Source of the DNA: Parcubacteria group bacterium
GTDB taxonomy: Bacteria > Patescibacteriota > Minisyncoccia > 2-02-FULL-40-12
Assembly: GCA_016186395.1 (NCBI GenBank)
Contig: JACPLU010000003.1
Span: 11,883 to 75,882 of the forward strand
Length of the DNA stretch: 64,000 nt
Reading direction: 5' to 3'
Shown piece by piece: positions 1-26,766 of the stretch (position 1 is its first letter; every line of letters begins with the position of its first letter). Position numbers and translations under genes: made by a program. The notes below the pieces were generated by a model that was not told the origin of the DNA, searched no databases, and was given only the letters and a program-made list of their open reading frames with translations.

Positions 1-71
1 GAAAAGGGCGGAGGCGTAGGGAAACCGAGTGCGAATAGTGCGTTTACCCGCCTACATTTTTAGATTTTAAC

Positions 72-114
72 AAAAAAAACAGCTGACTGAATTTATGTTT
101 CAATACAGCTGTTA
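72..114 (-). terminator. Rho-independent terminator for the insertion-encoded minus-strand ORF
   Basis: aacagctg(79-86)...cagctgtt(107-114) hairpin followed on the minus strand by an 8-T run (A-run 71-78 on plus). Confidence 0.6.
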
Positions 115-148
115 CCACTACCACCGAAATTAAATTCTGACGGATTTC

Positions 149-376
149 TTAGTCAACCAGTAGTTTAAGGACCTCCTCGTCTTCGTTGTAAAAACCGAGG
201 AGTTCACCGAGATGATTAATCACAGTGGACTTTTGAATCCAGTTTGGAACATCCGTTGCTCCAGCGAGCCTCACTTTCGTGTAGACAACGACTTCGCTTT
301 GTGTGCCTTCCAAAAGAGCCTCAACAGAACATTTCCGAATGAATTTATCACCTTTTTTTAAGTCTTTAAATTTCAT
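149..376 (-). CDS. 75-aa protein of unknown function encoded antisense inside the 23S insertion
   Basis: RBS aaggagga sits 5 nt upstream of ATG (374-376, minus strand). The 113-aa ORF in the track would start inside rRNA sequence beyond the inverted repeat, so the internal start is preferred. A hairpin plus T-run lies downstream at 72-114 on the minus strand. Confidence 0.5.
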   Translation of the reverse strand: MKFKDLKKGDKFIRKCSVEALLEGTQSEVVVYTKVRLAGATDVPNWIQKSTVINHLGELLGFYNEDEEVLKLLVD

Positions 377-1000
377 TGTCTCCTCCTTGAAGTAAAGAAC
401 GCGTTTGTTGAAATAGCAGTATATACTATGGTAGCATATACTTTTGTTTTTGTCAATTGAATCTAAAAATGTAGGCGGGATTTGTCTCATACTTAAGACC
501 CGAAGCCGGGTGAGCTACCCATGGCCAGGATGAAGTTCCGCGAAAGCGGAATGGAGGTCCGAACCCACGCATGGCGCAATATGCGGGGATGAGCTGTGGG
601 TCGGAGTGAAAAGCTTATCGAACCCGGTAATAGCTGGTTCTCTCCGAAATGCCTTTAGGGGCAGCGTCGGATTATGTTAAGTTGGGGGTAGAGCACTGAT
701 TGGATTTCCGTGCCCTTATGGGTAGGTTTTCCAGCCAAACTCCGAATACCAATTTAATTACTCCGGCAGTGAGACTACGGGGGCGAAGCTCCGTGGTCGC
801 GACGGGAACAGCCGTGATCTCAAGTTAAGGTCCCTAAATTAAGGTTAAGTGTGAAAGGTAGTGAAGACGCTCAAACAACCAGGAGGTTTGCTTAGAAGCA
901 GCCATCCTTTAAAGAGTGCGTAACAGCTCACTGGTCGAGCTTTTTTGCGCCTAAGATGTAACGGGGCTAAAACCTTATACCGAAACTGAGGGTTATCTGT

Positions 1001-1108
1001 GGCTCATCGATGCGTCTAAGGTCAAATGACTAAGGACTAAAGCTGAAAGGTTTAATTTTTGGCTTTAGACTTTAGACTCTAGACTTTAGTCGTGACGATG
1101 AGTCACGG
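1001..1108. repeat. 108-bp hairpin element, copy 1, inserted at the 23S helix-45 IVS hotspot
   Basis: Differs from 2087-2194 by a single nucleotide. Imperfect hairpin: gactaaggactaaagc ... gctttagactttagactctagactttagtc. Flanked by ggctcatcgatg / cgatgagtcacgg. Confidence 0.8.
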
Positions 1109-1666
1109 GTAGCGGTAGGAGAGCGCTTCATGTGCAGTGAAGCCTACGACGTGAGTCGGGGTGGAGCGCATGGAGGTGAGAATGTTGGCATGAGTAACCA
1201 CAATCCGCCTGAAAACGGCGGACGCCGAAAGCCTAAGGATTCCTCCGCGATGGCAATCATCGGAGGGTTAGGCGGCCCTAAGCATAAGTCAGGTTTTGGC
1301 CTGGCGAATGCGATGGACAGCCGGTTAATATTCCGGCCCTTCCTTATATTTTTAAGGAGCCCGGAGCTTAGTAGACTTGGCATATTATTGGATTTATGTT
1401 TGTGATATAAGAATGCGTCTTTGGAAAATCCGGGATGCTGTCTTTAATGACGAATTTAAATATTATGAAAACCCTGGTAACAGGGAATCAAGTTGAGCAA
1501 GCTTCCTAGAAAAACTTCTAAAATTATGTATAAGGAGTCCGTACCGCAATCCGACACAGGTAGGCAGCCAGGGAAACTGGTAAGGCGAACGGGTGAATGG
1601 TGGCTAAGGAACTCGGCAAAACAGCGGGCGTAAGTTCGCAATATGCCCTGCCAGCCGTAGATTTTA

Positions 1667-1953
1667 GTTTTTAATTTAGTTATAAAGTATCCATGTACTG
1701 TATTTATCTAATTCAGCATTCTGTAACAAAACAAATTTATATTGGTCTAACCAATGATTTGAAACGTCGGTTGTATGAACATAATGCTTCACAACAGAAA
1801 GCGACCAAAAGAAAAATTGGAGAATGGGTTTTAGTTTATGCAGAGGCATACAGAAATAAGACGGACGCTCAAATTAGAGAAAGAAAGTTGAAGCAACACG
1901 GAAGTAATAAACGTTGGTTAAAGGACAGAATTAAGTACAGTTTATTTGAAGAT
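1667..1953. other. Second helix-tip insertion in 23S (E. coli helix-63 region), bounded by a 16-bp perfect inverted repeat
   Basis: ccagccgtagatttta (1651-1666) pairs with taaaatctacggctgg (1954-1969). Conserved 23S sequence resumes at ggggactgtttatcaaaaacacag. Confidence 0.7.
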
Positions 1954-1956
1954 TAA
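1693..1956 (+). CDS. GIY-YIG domain protein (87 aa) encoded inside the 23S insertion
   Basis: The YIGLTNDLKRRLYEHN motif is a GIY-YIG core. The ORF is in the same sense as the rRNA. Confidence 0.7.
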   Translation: MYCIYLIQHSVTKQIYIGLTNDLKRRLYEHNASQQKATKRKIGEWVLVYAEAYRNKTDAQIRERKLKQHGSNKRWLKDRIKYSLFED

Positions 1957-2086
1957 AATCTACGGCTGGCCGCAGCGAATGACCTCTGGGGACTGTTTAT
2001 CAAAAACACAGCTCTCTGCTAACTCGAAAGAGGATGTATAGGGGGCGACGCTTGTCCAATGCTGGAACGTTAACGGTGATGGTCGT

Positions 2087-2194
2087 GGCTCATCGATGCG
2101 TCTAAGGTAAAATGACTAAGGACTAAAGCTGAAAGGTTTAATTTTTGGCTTTAGACTTTAGACTCTAGACTTTAGTCGTGACGATGAGTCACGG
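2087..2194. repeat. 108-bp hairpin element, copy 2, inserted in the 23S domain IV helix-68 region
   Basis: Nearly identical to 1001-1108. It interrupts the 23S between ggtgatggtcgtg and ctggagcccgaagcgccagtcaatgacggc. Confidence 0.8.
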
Positions 2195-2241
2195 CTGGAG
2201 CCCGAAGCGCCAGTCAATGACGGCAATAACCATAATTGTCC

Positions 2242-2466
2242 AAAGGTGAATCGCATTGCCTTTGTAAAATCCGACTATATCGGTGAACATCTCACTAAGA
2301 CGTGAGACAATACCGAGGCAATCCGTGAAAACGGAGAGTCCGTAGAGACTAAACGTCGGATCCTGAGCAAGCCGAAAGGCTAGTTGAAGGAAAGATATAG
2401 TCCGAACTGCATGGCGACATGCAGAAATGAGCAGAAATGTCTCGTTCCGCCGAGTCTGATTCGGCG
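2242..2466 (+). mobile_element. Small ORF-less group I intron in 23S, near E. coli position 1917
   Basis: Inserted after ccataattgtcc (E. coli ACGGUCC). Carries P7-like core strands gagactaaacgtcgg and aagatatagtccgaac, like the Tetrahymena CAGACTAAATGTCGG / AAGATATAGTCGGAC. Ends in G. Confidence 0.6.
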
Positions 2467-2529
2467 AAGTAACAATGTTGAGCGCAATTCCTTTCCGGGT
2501 AAGTTACGGAACTTGCCCCATGAAGAAGT

Positions 2530-3200
2530 GATTCTTTATGCAAAGTCGGCTTATAACGGTGGAGCCTGTTTCATGATAAAATGGAATAGAGAATACCGTG
2601 GGAAGTTGTCTTGACCTAACTCAAGATTAACCCCGTAACGACTGAGGCGAAAGCCACAATGGCGTTTTTTGAAACGTCATTATACGCCGACCCCTTAGGA
2701 TATTATGAGGAATATCGAAGAATATATTTCTGGATATGTTGATGGCGAAGGATGTTTTACTGTAACTTTTAACAAAAGGGATAAAGCAAAAATTGGTTGG
2801 GAATTAAGACCAAGTTTTTCAGTCAGTCAGAATGAAGAAAGACGACAGGTGCTAGATATTATACAGAAATATTTTGGATGTGGTTTTATTCGAAGAGATT
2901 ATTCAGACAGAACAGTAAAATTTGAAATTCGAGACCACATACAACTTAGAGATAGGGTTATTCCTCATTTTGAGAGATTTCCATTGCTCTCAAATAAACA
3001 AAAAGATTTTGAATTGTTTAGAGAAGTATGCAAAATTATTGATCATGGAGGTCATCTTACAAAAAGTGGATTTATTAAGATTGTAAATTTTGCTTATCGA
3101 ATGAATGGATCTGGTAAGCGTAAAAGAACTTCCCAAGAAATAATTCGAAATCTTAAATGATACTTAAGGTGATGATATAGTCTATAGTCTTAATTTAAAG
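2530..3200 (+). mobile_element. Group I intron in 23S domain IV, around E. coli 1931-1951, carrying a LAGLIDADG ORF; boundaries approximate
   Basis: Non-rRNA block between ccccatgaag and ggaaccactggaggactgtctcagcc. Shares taaccccgtaacgactga and ataccgtgggaagt with the intron at 4694-5437, and has P7-like ggtgatgatatagtc. Confidence 0.6.
2705..3160 (+). CDS. LAGLIDADG homing endonuclease (151 aa)
   Basis: YISGYVDGEGCF is a LAGLIDADG motif. Size is typical of a single-motif enzyme, and it sits inside a group I intron of the 23S. Confidence 0.8.
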   Translation: MRNIEEYISGYVDGEGCFTVTFNKRDKAKIGWELRPSFSVSQNEERRQVLDIIQKYFGCGFIRRDYSDRTVKFEIRDHIQLRDRVIPHFERFPLLSNKQKDFELFREVCKIIDHGGHLTKSGFIKIVNFAYRMNGSGKRKRTSQEIIRNLK

Positions 3201-3473
3201 ATTAAGAAGTTCCGGAGCGCATGAAAAGCGGAACCACTGGAGGACTGTCTCAGCCACTGGCCCGGTGAAAATGCAATGTCAGTAAAGATGCTGACTACCC
3301 GCACCAAGACGGAAAGACCCCGGAAGCTTTACTGTCTCTTGGTATTGGTCTATGAGTTTGGATGCGTAGTGTAGTGGGTAGGATTTGAAGTCCACCTTTT
3401 GGGGTGGATGGATCCAACAATGAAACACCCATCTTTCAGATTTATAGCTCTAACTGGTGACACCCTAGAAGGA

Positions 3474-3780
3474 AAATTTATAAGGAGGAGATTCTATAAT
3501 GCTATTTGAAGGTTCTCCTAGCCCAACATTTGAAGAAGAAGAAAAGTTTGGATTTAATCTATCAACAAAAATTTATGTTCATATTAATTCACCTCTTTTA
3601 GGTGAAAATGGTAATAAGATAGAAAAGAAATTTGGTGTATTAATCCATCTTTTAACTGGAAAACACGCGAGATTCAAATTAGCTGATCAATTTCGAGTAT
3701 ATGGAAGTGCGGCTAATGTGATAAAATTTTTGAGTAGTTATTTTCAATAAATTTCCTTTTGACAAGCTAGTCTTGTCTCT
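3474..3780. other. Third helix-tip insertion in 23S (domain V helix-78/79 region) carrying a sense-strand gene cassette
   Basis: Bounded by ccctagaa (3464-3471) and ttctaggg (3781-3788). Conserved sequence resumes at caggacagtgcctggtggacagtttgaatggggcg. Confidence 0.6.
3499..3750 (+). CDS. 83-aa protein of unknown function inside the 23S insertion
   Basis: RBS aaggaggag 9 nt upstream of ATG. Hairpin gacaagctagtcttgtc immediately after the stop. Confidence 0.45.
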   Translation: MLFEGSPSPTFEEEEKFGFNLSTKIYVHINSPLLGENGNKIEKKFGVLIHLLTGKHARFKLADQFRVYGSAANVIKFLSSYFQ

Positions 3781-4148
3781 TTCTAGGGTTTCATCAGGAC
3801 AGTGCCTGGTGGACAGTTTGAATGGGGCGTTTCCCTCCTAAAGAGTAACGGAGGGGTCCATAAGGTACCCTAGTCCCGGATGGAAATCGGGACGATAGTG
3901 TAAAAGCATAAGGGTGCTTGACTGCAAGGCAAACGTGCCGCGCAGGTGCGAAAGCAGGGTTTAGTGAACCGACCGTGGCTGGTAGGAGCGCGGAAGATTA
4001 TCGGATAAAAGCTACTCCGGGGATAACAGGCTAGTACCGCCCGAGCGTCCATAGCGACGGCGGTGTTCGGCACCTCGATGTCGGCTCGGCTTATCCTGGC
4101 GGTGAAGAAGCTGCCAAGGGTTGGGCTGTTCGCCCATTAAAAAGCTAC

Positions 4149-4621
4149 GCGAGCTGGGTTCAGACCGTTAAGAATCTGAATCATAAATCATGAAACTTGA
4201 AACATCTTGTTTCGGTTTGATTTGGTTTTTTAACAGTCTGAATCCGAGGATATTCAAAAGACATCATTTAACGGCGGCACTATATAGGAATATATAGTGT
4301 GAAGTTGACCATATCGGTGAAATCCCATTGGGATAACACCTAGGGAAGTTTGTAAACTTTATTGAAGTTCTTTTTTGGGAGGTGTAGCTCAAGAGTATTG
4401 TATGATGAAAGGCGAAAGTCGGGGACTCATACAGTAGCGAGAGCACTGGACTCTGGATCCAGAGGTTGCAGGTAAAAATCCTATCACCACCCACCAATTT
4501 TTGAGTAATCAATATTTGGCACTTCAATAAAGTTTACAAATCCCGTAGAGACTATACGTCAGCCACCCTAATTGAGCTTAGCTCAGCGGGTGAAGATATA
4601 GTCCAGTGCATACAGCAATGT
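4149..4621 (+). mobile_element. ORF-less group I intron in 23S at the I-CreI/I-CeuI-type site (around E. coli 2593)
   Basis: Exon gggttcagaccgt | intron | cgtgagacaggttggtcc matches E. coli GGGUUUAGAACGU|CGUGAGACAGUUCGGUCC. Core strands agactatacgtc and gaagatatagtcc are present and the intron ends in G. The only ORF in it (4264-4527, minus strand) looks spurious. Confidence 0.7.
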
Positions 4622-4693
4622 ATGAAACATGCGTGAGACAGGTTGGTCCTTATCTGGTGTGGGCGTTAAGACTTGAGGGGAGCTGCTCCTAGT

Positions 4694-5437
4694 AGAATTT
4701 GCTACTTTAAGGAGTAATCCTTAATGACAATCCGACTTATAACGGTGGAACCTTATTGCAACTTGATTTGTTGATAACCAGAATTATCCTAATCCAATAA
4801 TTCTGGTACAATTTACTTGAGGACAAGATAGTAATAAGACAATACCGTGGGAAGTCATTCTAAAAACGATTTAGCATATATTTCCGGTTTTCTTGATGGA
4901 GACGGAAGTTTAATGTTGCAGATCAAAAAGTATAAGTACAATAAGTCAGGAAAAAGATTCATGGTAACTATTTGTTTCTATCAGGATTCAAGACACGACA
5001 AACCTCTTTATTGGATCCGTAAGATATTCGGGATAGGGTATATATCTAAAAGAAATGACGGTATTACTGAATTAAGAATAAATGGATATTCTAGAGTAAG
5101 AATAATTTTAGAAAAACTATTGCCGTTTATTAAGTTTAAGAAGAAGCAAGCAAGAATTCTTTATAAAGCGAGTAAATTACTCGAAAAAGAAAAAAAACTT
5201 AAAAAGACTTCCATGATTCGACTCGTAGATTACATAGTAAGAATCCAAGAGGAAAATTATGTGACAAGAAAAAAGAGATCGAAAGATGATTTATTAAAAT
5301 TTTTAGGATTGACCCCGTAACGACTCATCTTTAAAATAGATGGATGGCTGTTTTTAAACAGTCATAATATGTCGGCTCCCATCTTTGTCGATGGGATGAA
5401 GATATAGTCTACTCTTCTGGTGACAGAAGAAAATGTG
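4694..5437 (+). mobile_element. Group I intron in 23S inserted within the sarcin-ricin loop, carrying a LAGLIDADG ORF
   Basis: Joining exons cctagt + acgagaggattgg recreates CUAGUACGAGAGGA. The 5' exon ends in U and the intron ends in G. Core strands taatatgtcgg and gaagatatagtct are present. Confidence 0.65.
4847..5320 (+). CDS. LAGLIDADG homing endonuclease (157 aa)
   Basis: LAYISGFLDGDGSL is a LAGLIDADG motif; the ORF is intron-encoded. Confidence 0.8.
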   Translation: MGSHSKNDLAYISGFLDGDGSLMLQIKKYKYNKSGKRFMVTICFYQDSRHDKPLYWIRKIFGIGYISKRNDGITELRINGYSRVRIILEKLLPFIKFKKKQARILYKASKLLEKEKKLKKTSMIRLVDYIVRIQEENYVTRKKRSKDDLLKFLGLTP

Positions 5438-5517
5438 ACGAGAGGATTGGAGTGGGGAAACCTCTGGCGTACCAGTAGTCCTGCCAAGGGCGTCGCTGGG
5501 TATCTATGTTTCCAAGT

Positions 5518-5548
<31 letters not shown>

Positions 5549-5703
5549 ATGCCCCAAGATTAGGTCTTTCTCTCCTGGAAGACTACCAGGTTGATAGGAT
5601 TCAGGTGTAAGCGCGGCAACGCGTTCAGCCGAGAATTACTAATAGAGAAACAATTTATTTTACCTTTTTTATAAATTCACCGAATACATAGTTTAAGAAT
5701 TGA

Positions 5704-5834
5704 AAAGACTAATTTGGCGATAATGCCGAGTGTGTCCCACCTCTGGTTTGTTTACAAGCCTTAATCCATTCCGAACAGAGAAGTGAAATCACTCAGGGCC
5801 GATGGTAGTTCGAGCTTAGCTCGAGCCAGAGTAG
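5704..5834 (+). rRNA. rrf: 5S rRNA, with a roughly 17-nt expansion in the helix III / loop B region
   Basis: Carries the 5S blocks gtcccacct, ccattccgaacagagaagtgaaa and ggccgatggtag, and ends in agagtaggtcgtcgccag. It lies about 55 bp after the 23S end. Confidence 0.7.
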
Positions 5835-6014
5835 GTCGTCGCCAGATTAGTCTTTTTAATTTGCTCTGTCACCAGGTCCAGCATAGCCACGCACCTTTTG
5901 TAAAACAAAAGGTGCGAGAGTACAAAAAATTAGTGCTGGGCTCCCTGTCCTGTCCGGCAGGCGGGGATGCGGGGCTTCTTGCAATAAAACAGATATTCGC
6001 GGTACGATTGAAGC

Positions 6015-24915: not shown

Positions 24916-26766
24916 ATGTGTGGCATTTTTGGTTTTGTTAGTAAAAAGCCTGTTACTGGTATAGGTAATATGCTCCAAGCTTTAAAAAAGCTTGAATATA
25001 GGGGTTATGACTCTACTGGTATCGCTGTTGTAACCCAGAAGGGAATTTATAGTCAAAAAAAAGCCGGCCGAATAAGCAAGTTGGAACCATTTTTAGATAA
25101 AAAAGTTTTAGGCTCCGTTTTTATTGGCCACACTCGTTGGGCAACTCATGGAAAGCCTTCCGATAAAAATGCTCATCCACATTTTGGATGCGATAATAAA
25201 ATTCAAATAGTACACAATGGAATAATAGAAAACTATAAATCTTTGAAGCATGAATTAGAAGGTCGTGGTCATCGTTTTAAATCCGATACCGATAGTGAAG
25301 TTTTTGCTCATTTAGTAGAAGAGTTTCTGGGACGTAAAAACGGATCTGAAATAAGATATTTCGAAGAAGCAGTAAGATTATCTTTAAAAAGAATTAAGGG
25401 GGCCTATGCCTTTGCCGTTATTCATCAAAATTATCCTAAAGTTATAATTGTAGCAAAAAATTCAAGTCCATTATTAATTGGATTAAGCGATCAGGCTAAA
25501 TACATTGCTTCAGACCCCATAGCCTTACTTCGTCATACTCGTAAGGTCATTTATCTTAATGATCAAGAGTTGGCTATTGTTACCCCAGATCAATTAAAGA
25601 TTTCAACTCTCCAGAATAAAGAGATATTAAGAAAATATCAAGAAGTTAGTTGGTCTGAGGATGCAGTCAGGAAAACTGGATTTACTCATTTCATGGAAAA
25701 AGAAATTTTTGAGGAGCCGGAGGCTGTAGAAAATGCTATTAGAGGCCGGTTGATCGTTTCTCAGGGTTTGGCAAAGTTGGGAGGATTAGAATCTGTACGC
25801 CAAAAATTAGAAAGTGTTAAAAGGTTGATTATAACTGCTTGCGGTACAGCTTTTTTTTCTGGTTTAGTTGGAGAGTACATGTTGGAAGAGTTTGCGGGTC
25901 TGCCAGTAGAGGTTGAGAGCGGTTCGGAGTTGCGCTATAAAAGATCTCCGTTTGATGATAAAAGTGCTTTGTTGGCTGTAAGCCAATCAGGAGAGACTGC
26001 CGATACTCTCGGCTCTATTAAGGAAATAAAAAAAACAGGTCTTTTAACGCTGGGGTTGGTAAATACAGTGGGTTCTTCTATTGCTAGGGAGACAAATGCC
26101 GGAGTTTATAATCATGCAGGACCAGAAATTAGCGTTGCCTCTACCAAAGTTTTTATTTCTCAATTAGCAGTTTTTGCTTTACTGACTTTATTTTTAGGCC
26201 GTCAAAGATCTATGAGTAAAAATATGGGCAAACTTATAGCCTCTGAGCTGACTTTGATACCAAGAAAGTTGAGAACTATATTAGAAAGTTCTGTCTATAT
26301 TAAACGTGTGGCTCGAAAATACTTTAAATATAATAACTTTTTATTTTTAGGTAGAAAATTTAATTATCCTATTGCACTTGAGGGAGCCTTGAAATTAAAA
26401 GAGGTATCCTACATTCATGCTGAAGGATATGGAGCGGGGGATATGAAACATGGACCGTTGGCTTTGATAGATGAGAATTTTCCATCTATAGTAATTGCTC
26501 CAAAAGACAGTGTATACGATAAAGTAGTTAGTAACATGGAGGAACTAAAAGCTCGGAAGGGTAAAATAATCATCATAACTACTAGCGGAAATAAAGGACT
26601 TGATAAATTAGCGGATGAGGTTTTGTATATTCCTAAAACGATTGAAATGCTTACTCCGCTTTTGACAGTGATGCCGTTACATCTCTTGGCATATTACATG
26701 GGAGTTTTTAGAGGTCACGATGTAGATAAGCCACGTAATCTTGCTAAATCAGTAACGGTGGAATAA
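24916..26766 (+). CDS. glmS: Glutamine--fructose-6-phosphate aminotransferase
   Basis: MCGIFGF N-terminal nucleophile followed by two SIS domains. The start is set at the Cys-2 ATG (24916), not the upstream ORF start. Confidence 0.95.
   Translation: MCGIFGFVSKKPVTGIGNMLQALKKLEYRGYDSTGIAVVTQKGIYSQKKAGRISKLEPFLDKKVLGSVFIGHTRWATHGKPSDKNAHPHFGCDNKIQIVHNGIIENYKSLKHELEGRGHRFKSDTDSEVFAHLVEEFLGRKNGSEIRYFEEAVRLSLKRIKGAYAFAVIHQNYPKVIIVAKNSSPLLIGLSDQAKYIASDPIALLRHTRKVIYLNDQELAIVTPDQLKISTLQNKEILRKYQEVSWSEDAVRKTGFTHFMEKEIFEEPEAVENAIRGRLIVSQGLAKLGGLESVRQKLESVKRLIITACGTAFFSGLVGEYMLEEFAGLPVEVESGSELRYKRSPFDDKSALLAVSQSGETADTLGSIKEIKKTGLLTLGLVNTVGSSIARETNAGVYNHAGPEISVASTKVFISQLAVFALLTLFLGRQRSMSKNMGKLIASELTLIPRKLRTILESSVYIKRVARKYFKYNNFLFLGRKFNYPIALEGALKLKEVSYIHAEGYGAGDMKHGPLALIDENFPSIVIAPKDSVYDKVVSNMEELKARKGKIIIITTSGNKGLDKLADEVLYIPKTIEMLTPLLTVMPLHLLAYYMGVFRGHDVDKPRNLAKSVTVE

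Follow-up and report, generated by a model that had tools for sequence, protein, structure and literature searches.

A probable mobile IA-type group I intron within the sarcin-ricin loop of a Parcubacteria 23S rRNA gene

The stretch of DNA analysed here, referred to as the window, is 64,000 nucleotides long and comes from a Parcubacteria group bacterium; its DNA sample has the accession SRR12113430. It opens within a 23S rRNA gene at approximately E. coli position 620. Window positions 1-46 read as 23S exon, and for this reason a 5'-truncated or split gene was rejected. The gene was delimited by its match to the Rfam LSU_rRNA_bacteria model and by global alignment with E. coli 23S, and four group I introns, along with several other insertions, lie within it. 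The insertion that is the subject of this report lies in the sarcin-ricin loop (SRL), and the features of the rRNA genes around it are as follows.

1..5666, forward strand: host 23S rRNA gene
2248-2480: group I intron at L1931, preceded by U and ending in G
2501-3206: group I intron at L1951, with a LAGLIDADG ORF (2705-3160, I-OnuI/I-PanMI-like) in P8, preceded by U and ending in G
4169-4631: group I intron at L2593, without an ORF, preceded by U and ending in G
4632..4693, forward strand: 5' exon piece of 62 nt (E. coli 2594-2656), ending in the SRL 5' strand ...CUCCUAGU, 84-86% identical to E. coli
4694..5437, forward strand: group I intron at L2656, 744 nt, placed by exon mapping, junctions shared by at least 76 loci, covariation and Rfam Intron_gpI
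4847..5320, forward strand: ORF of 157 aa for a single-motif LAGLIDADG homing endonuclease (Pfam LAGLIDADG_1), filling the P6a loop
5438..5666, forward strand: 3' exon, comprising the SRL 3' part ACGAGAGGAUUGGAG and the remainder of domain VI, by E. coli alignment
5713-5847: 5S gene, after the 23S gene

The exon between the L2593 and L2656 introns (4632-4693) is only 62 nt long, and with so short a piece between two introns one may ask what prevents exon skipping. The 5S rRNA gene is bracketed by a 23-nt inverted repeat (91%; 5698-5720 and 5839-5861) that is presumably a processing stem.

The 744-nt insertion at window 4694-5437 separates U2656 from A2657 of the SRL (E. coli numbering). Direct reading gives ...gagctgctcctagT as the end of the 5' exon, with its last base at 4693, and Acgagaggattgg as the opening of the 3' exon, from 5438 onwards. 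At the 5' boundary of the intron ...gagctgctcctagT (4693) is followed by Agaatttgctac, and at the 3' boundary ...aaaatgtG (5437) is followed by Acgagaggattggagtgg. Both blastn and a long-gap global alignment against the E. coli 23S gene placed window 4632-4693 and 5438-5571 on contiguous E. coli positions flanking the SRL. The E. coli copy used is 2907 nt long and is offset by +2 from standard numbering at the SRL; the numbering was calibrated on AGUACGAGAGGACC, taking its first A as A2654. The Rfam LSU match that covers the 3' exon (5425-5649, 142 bits) resumes in the exon exactly at ACGAGAGGA, and in a relative that lacks the ORF the Rfam LSU model puts a 325-nt insert inside CUAGUA[..]. The first base of the L2656 intron and the first base of the 3' exon are both A, which leaves an ambiguity of one nucleotide on alignment alone. 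This was settled by the rules for group I introns, in which the U before the 5' splice site is paired to G and the last intron base is G. A preliminary description of this DNA had placed the insertion inside the SRL between U and A. Exon mapping puts that placement at U2656/A2657 with base-exact coordinates, and the model-based and the comparative limits of the intron both fall inside the SRL.

On the SRL 3' strand, window 5447-5448, the host reads GGAUUGG, whereas E. coli and nearly all relatives read GGACCGG (C2666U, C2667U). Among approximately 85 SRL-type matches listed, a few carry a single change (ACU or AUC) and none carries both. The joined exons thus read AGUACGAGAGGAUU and not ...GGACC. 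The preliminary description had also stated that exon joining restores the universal SRL sequence; the loop is indeed restored, but in the form that this host carries, without GGACC.

The insertion itself contains the elements of a group I ribozyme, as had been proposed from a first look at the sequence: the U/G splice-site rules, the R and S elements and the covarying helices agree on this. Its parts are listed below.

4690..4704, forward strand: P1 hairpin, exon UAGU and intron AG (4690-4695) with the guide UUGCUA (4699-4704)
4707..4724, forward strand: P2 hairpin with a GUAA loop, compensatory changes in 6/7 pairs
4732..4736, forward strand: P3 5' strand CCGAC, partner 5371-5375, 4/5 pairs covarying and 100% of cells paired
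4742..4848, forward strand: P4 enclosing the P5 extension, ACGGUG (4742-4747) with UACCGU (4843-4848), from the domain fold
4849..4856, forward strand: 5' strands of P6 (GGG) and P6a (GUC), partners 5311-5316 (GAC CCC), invariant and paired in all aligned sequences
5314..5325, forward strand: R element CCCGUAACGACU, canonical (..ACGACU..) and family-invariant, with the P7 5' strand GACU at 5322-5325
5326..5365, forward strand: P7.1 hairpin (5326-5342) and P7.2 hairpin (5344-5365), between P7 and P3', from fold prediction
5371..5375, forward strand: P3 3' strand GUCGG, compensatory with 4732-4736
5377..5396, forward strand: P8 hairpin UCCCAUC/GAUGGGA, a perfect 7-bp stem in the window
5399..5409, forward strand: S element AAGAUAUAGUC, J8/7 and the P7 3' strand AGUC (5406-5409), family-invariant and aligned to the Rfam consensus
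5414..5429, forward strand: P9 hairpin with a GUGA loop, compensatory changes in 5/6 pairs
5437, forward strand: omega-G, the terminal intron base, a G directly before ACGAGAGGA in every SRL-type locus listed

The Rfam Intron_gpI model (RF00028) matched 5316-5430 with 28.1 bits (E 3.6e-4 in a 6.2-kb scan, 6.4e-5 in a 1.1-kb scan). Since the 474-nt ORF splits the core, the match stays under the gathering score of 50. A relative that lacks the ORF gave a full-length match to RF00028 with 37.4 bits (E 6e-8) against the same gathering score of 50; both matches are statistically significant. Just one of the other three introns of this 23S gene exceeded 50 bits with this model.

We used a comparative set consisting of the window core, with its P6 loop collapsed, and ten ORF-less relatives, in which helices were specified by hand and pairs were counted. 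In these 11 sequences the core helices had 92.5% of their cells paired, as against 33-46% when the partners were slid by 1-3 columns. Twenty-three pairs had changed on both sides, and the observed covariation score was reached by 0/500 shuffles. The P1, P4, P6 and P7 helices are invariant or nearly so and are paired in all 11 sequences; since P6 and P7 are always paired without variation, they are uninformative for covariation. In P1, 6/6 pairs form in 11/11 sequences, five of them constant and the sixth A-U in nine sequences and G-U in two. The U4693-G4701 wobble at the 5' splice site is U-G in all 11. The window itself has a compensated P3, with CCGAC/GUCGG in place of the UCGGC/GCCGA of most relatives. 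For P4, which is near-invariant with all cells paired, we observed compensatory change in 1/6 pairs, and the proximal pairs of P5 covary. The alignment of P8 across the family is poor, with 57% of cells paired. RNAalifold applied to 73 collapsed cores recovered P1-P6, P8 and P9 and added a spurious terminal helix. This program cannot represent the P3/P7 pseudoknot, which is why the hand-specified structure was used. Just four nucleotides of the exon take part in P1, and we could identify no convincing P10 between the intron and the 3' exon.

A pair of hairpins, P7.1 and P7.2, following P7 is the mark of subgroup IA. Folding predicted these two hairpins in the window and in 42/43 members of the family, and on these predicted hairpins the L2656 intron is IA-type (putatively IA3-like). 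The td intron of phage T4, a member of subgroup IA2, lies in a protein-coding gene and combines an IA architecture having P7.1 and P7.2 with an ORF for a GIY-YIG endonuclease looped from the P6 region. The L2656 intron resembles it in IA architecture and in its P6-region ORF, but the td endonuclease is GIY-YIG, not LAGLIDADG, and there is no sequence relationship between the two.

The distribution of this intron was examined with the pattern GATATAGTC-N15-45-ACGAGAGGA, which has 18 specified bases, in one genome per species (species representatives; 596 Gb). The scan returned at least 119 loci, with approximately 540 chance matches expected in 596 Gb by our own calculation. Among the 119 loci listed, about 33 were unrelated DNA and were removed by requiring the SRL 3' exon; about 85 run on into a genuine SRL 3' exon. 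The 5' junction, found by complementarity to the SRL stem, was located in 76 of these. It is always ...TAGT followed by A(A/G)...TTGCTAC, and the intron always ends ...G directly before ACGAGAGGA. The insertion is thus not a chance arrangement, because the same junctions occur in at least 76 independent loci.

Record names of the 76 listed loci are almost all from Patescibacteria. Loci labelled Elusimicrobiota, Gammaproteobacteria and WS2 were considered as hosts outside this group and rejected, their flanking exons being closest to CPR loci; loci from Methylomirabilota (L056) and Mycoplasmatales (L118) were left out of this comparison because their flanking exon is too short. Many intron-bearing loci (L006-L120) are labelled 'uncultured Candidatus Saccharibacteria bacterium'. 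In the survey of Tsurumaki et al. (PMC11270868), the 23S genes of Saccharibacteria are reported to be essentially without group I introns. The labels may serve as generic placeholders for Patescibacteria; otherwise, the intron is more widely distributed than that survey showed.

The gene within the intron had likewise been recognised in the preliminary description as LAGLIDADG, and its product matches Pfam LAGLIDADG_1 with 39.4 bits (cut-off 23.1) over a single stretch, residues 12-100 of 157. Among solved structures, the closest are those of the homodimeric I-CreI, I-MsoI and I-CvuI (E 1e-11 to 1e-14), which are natural single-domain enzymes. The catalytic-acid motif GFLDGDGS aligns to GFVDGDGS of I-CreI, conserving GFxDGDGS, and PFIKFKKKQA aligns to PFLKLKQKQA, conserving a PFxKxKxKQA segment. 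An identical (100%) protein in NCBI is named from a Parcubacteria group MAG, and the host label used in the analysis was taken from it. After it, the closest database homologues, proteins of 155-159 aa, share 60-72% identity with the 157-aa protein; the named ones are all from Patescibacteria. The endonucleases of other L2656 introns are 43-68% identical to the 157-aa protein, and the second LAGLIDADG protein of the same 23S gene (2705-3160) is approximately 25% identical to it.

The ribozyme core contains both ends of the ORF. Its GUG start (4847-4849) lies across the P4/P6 junction: the first two bases close the P4 3' strand and the third is the first G of P6. The UAA stop (5318-5320) is in J6/7, inside the R element. 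In the folded ribozyme the GUG is base-paired, and no Shine-Dalgarno sequence is visible upstream of it. An uninterrupted frame between this GUG and this UAA is present in 44 of the 76 listed members, the window included, and gives proteins of 155-164 aa. Twelve of the 76 lack the ORF, their P6 loop being just 22-32 nt long, and in the other listed members it is broken, truncated or frameshifted. This mix of intact, decayed and absent ORFs fits a homing cycle of gain, decay and loss.

The same 23S gene carries further insertions. An element of 110 nt occurs twice (window 999-1108 and 2085-2194, 99% identity), at approximately E. coli 1170, the classical helix-45 intervening-sequence site, and at approximately E. 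coli 1870. Inverted repeats, GTGGCTCATCG...CGATGAGTCACGG, form its ends and TTAGACT is repeated inside it; it resembles a miniature intervening sequence that is mobile or has been duplicated. The insertion at 47-480 (approximately E. coli 655) is bounded by a 35-nt inverted repeat (83%) and contains a minus-strand ORF of 75 aa (149-376) with a strong Shine-Dalgarno sequence (aaggagg); this ORF had no match in Pfam or NCBIfam and no exact copy on record. A 25-nt inverted repeat forms the boundary of the insertion at 1650-1970, which encodes an 87-aa GIY-YIG protein (1693-1956; Pfam 64 bits) and around whose ORF no group I core was detected. The 317-nt insertion at 3455-3771 (approximately E. 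coli 2200) has short flanking inverted repeats, ccctagaa/ttctaggg, and an 83-aa ORF (3499-3750) behind aaggagg that had no match in Pfam or NCBIfam. Elsewhere in the window, ARAGORN called a tRNA-Phe with the anticodon AAA at 24951-25025, and the Rfam tRNA model gave no report there at E<=0.01. This call may be false, or the tRNA may be unusual.

Comparison of the four group I introns showed that one R element, CCGTAGAGACTA.ACGTC, is common to the L1931 and L2593 introns and that another is common to the L1951 and L2656 introns. Because the R elements are shared pairwise, the gene holds two lineages of ribozyme, with two insertion sites apiece. A common scaffold underlies the L1951 and L2656 introns, with a 59-nt P1-P4 stretch that is 75% identical and Q/P6 and R elements that are 95% identical. 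They differ in the guide, which is CUUGCCC reading GGGU/AAG at L1951 and UUGCUA reading UAGU/AG at L2656. They also differ in the ORF, which at L1951 is in P8 and of the I-OnuI/I-PanMI-like lineage and at L2656 is in P6 and of the I-CreI-type lineage. Bacterial L1951 introns include Cbu.L1951 of Coxiella burnetii. A shared scaffold with different guides suggests ectopic retargeting followed by separate capture of different endonuclease genes. On this basis we put forward, as a speculative proposal that we think unlikely in its full form, that the SRL intron family is a retargeted L1951-type ribozyme (guide CUUGCCC to UUGCUA) with an independently captured I-CreI-type gene, the start and stop of which became fused into the P4/P6 junction and J6/7. 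If this were true, an RNA could either fold as a ribozyme or be translated into the endonuclease, but not both at once. The intron would also be a late checkpoint, with a pre-50S particle unable to activate the elongation-factor GTPases and an SRL existing only after splicing.

Three other readings of the locus bear on whether and how the insertion is removed. The 23S gene could be a decaying, non-functional copy and the intron a relic that needs no splicing. The unusual load of insertions and the presence of U2666 and U2667 in the SRL would suit such a history. On the other hand, across the functional centres the exons retain 70-87% identity with E. coli, every intron helix and the 157-aa ORF are intact, and the 64-kb window showed no second LSU gene. 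A heavy intron load is, moreover, normal in CPR 23S genes, 82% of which have insertions in the survey (PMC11270868). We regard decay as very improbable. Marginally less probable still is that the insertion is an intervening sequence excised without religation, leaving the 23S rRNA fragmented within the SRL. The insertions at 47-480 and 1650-1970 of this gene, with their long inverted repeats, do resemble classical RNase III-type intervening sequences. The L2656 insertion, however, lacks a long flanking stem and has a full covarying group I core, and the bulged-G motif of the established SRL structure would be lost if the strand were broken between U2656 and A2657.

It is more conceivable, although still unlikely in our estimate, that the intron is not autocatalytic and needs either its own LAGLIDADG protein as a maturase or a host factor for folding and splicing. 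The short P1 and the lack of a visible P10 point in this direction, and a maturase role of LAGLIDADG proteins is an established phenomenon that is mentioned in PMC11270868. Against such dependence, 12 members have a P6 loop of 22-32 nt and many others have broken ORFs, all with an intact core. The ORF-less members with an intact core therefore make a general requirement for a cis-encoded maturase unlikely; a host factor may still take part.

With its position, its covarying RNA architecture, its intact ORF and its relatives with and without the ORF all directly observed, we read window 4694-5437 as a mobile IA-type group I intron at U2656/A2657 of the 23S SRL of a member of Parcubacteria, belonging to class 23IS14 (position 2657), and give this reading a probability of roughly 0.9. 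From these features we infer self-splicing, an active endonuclease with its target, and the homodimeric state of the enzyme. In the pre-rRNA, P1 would form when the guide UUGCUA pairs with exon nucleotides 2653-2656 (UAGU) and the two bases that open the intron; in this helix the U2656-G wobble would mark the 5' splice site. Exogenous guanosine bound in P7 would attack after U2656. The terminal G5437 would then occupy the P7 pocket, and exon ligation would restore UAGUACGAGAGGA, the ligated junction reading CCUAGU-ACGAGAGGAUU. Because ligation recreates the loop, an SRL that is functional for the elongation-factor GTPases would be present only after splicing, and it is a reasonable inference that this splicing must be efficient. 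The 157-aa protein probably acts as a homodimer, by analogy with I-CreI, and would cut intron-less SRL DNA around the palindromic GT/AC junction. Repair from an intron-bearing copy would then transfer the intron (homing).

Insertions at this site have been catalogued before. Tsurumaki et al. (2024, J Bacteriol; PMC11270868) surveyed 348 CPR 23S genes, 82% of which have insertions, and named the frequent sites 23IS1-14. In their account, LAGLIDADG_1 proteins are mostly encoded at 1917, 1931, 1952, 2593, 2604 and 2657 (23IS6-8, 12-14), and group I introns at 23IS9-11, 13 and 14 were previously unreported in bacteria. The window insertion agrees with the definition of 23IS14 given there: it is at least 100 bp long, lies at approximately 2657 in a CPR host, is group-I-like and encodes LAGLIDADG_1. 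Host clade, gene, site and protein family are thus common to both, and four of the positions that they list match the introns of the window 23S gene (1931, 1951/1952, 2593, 2656/2657). The additional nucleotide in their site numbers 1952 and 2657 can be explained by the ambiguity of an A/A junction. In the survey, 2657 is given as a number; its main text has neither the word 'sarcin' nor a secondary structure for the 2657 intron, and does not describe the window instance individually. The enzyme assayed in that work is I-ShaI, from site 23IS7, and not the site-2657 enzyme. The preliminary description had called the SRL an unusual homing site. This holds against the classical organelle and bacterial catalogues but not for CPR/Patescibacteria, in which the site is frequent and catalogued as 23IS14 (PMC11270868). 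Among the rows listed from Table 1 of a catalogue of archaeal group I introns, the LSU positions are 1923, 1931, 2500 and 2593 and none is at the SRL site, and our text searches of the literature found no other report of a group I intron in the SRL (helix 95), L2654-L2657.

The closest parallels for the enzyme are the chloroplast LSU introns at L2593 that encode I-CreI, I-MsoI and I-CvuI. These group I introns likewise interrupt a universally conserved part of the 23S gene and encode single-motif LAGLIDADG proteins of approximately 150-170 aa, but the target of these enzymes is 2593 rather than 2656 and their similarity in sequence to the 157-aa protein is distant. The L2593 intron of the window (4169-4631) is without an ORF, and its R element matches that of the L1931 intron and not that of the L2656 intron.

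The L2656 intron is a well-preserved further member of a class already catalogued in CPR, and its site is not a new phenomenon. The site number was known; what is added here is a covariation-supported structure, an IA-type class, an ORF whose start and stop lie in the ribozyme core, and kinship with the L1951 intron. Current understanding is not overturned by an intron in the SRL. The locus confirms at the nucleotide level that a mobile intron can occupy this universally conserved loop, which the elongation-factor GTPases require, and it raises the question of why the SRL intron is apparently confined to Patescibacteria. The DNA coding for the SRL varies very little across cellular life and is presumably the target of this endonuclease family; an SRL-directed enzyme of this kind could serve as a useful natural meganuclease.
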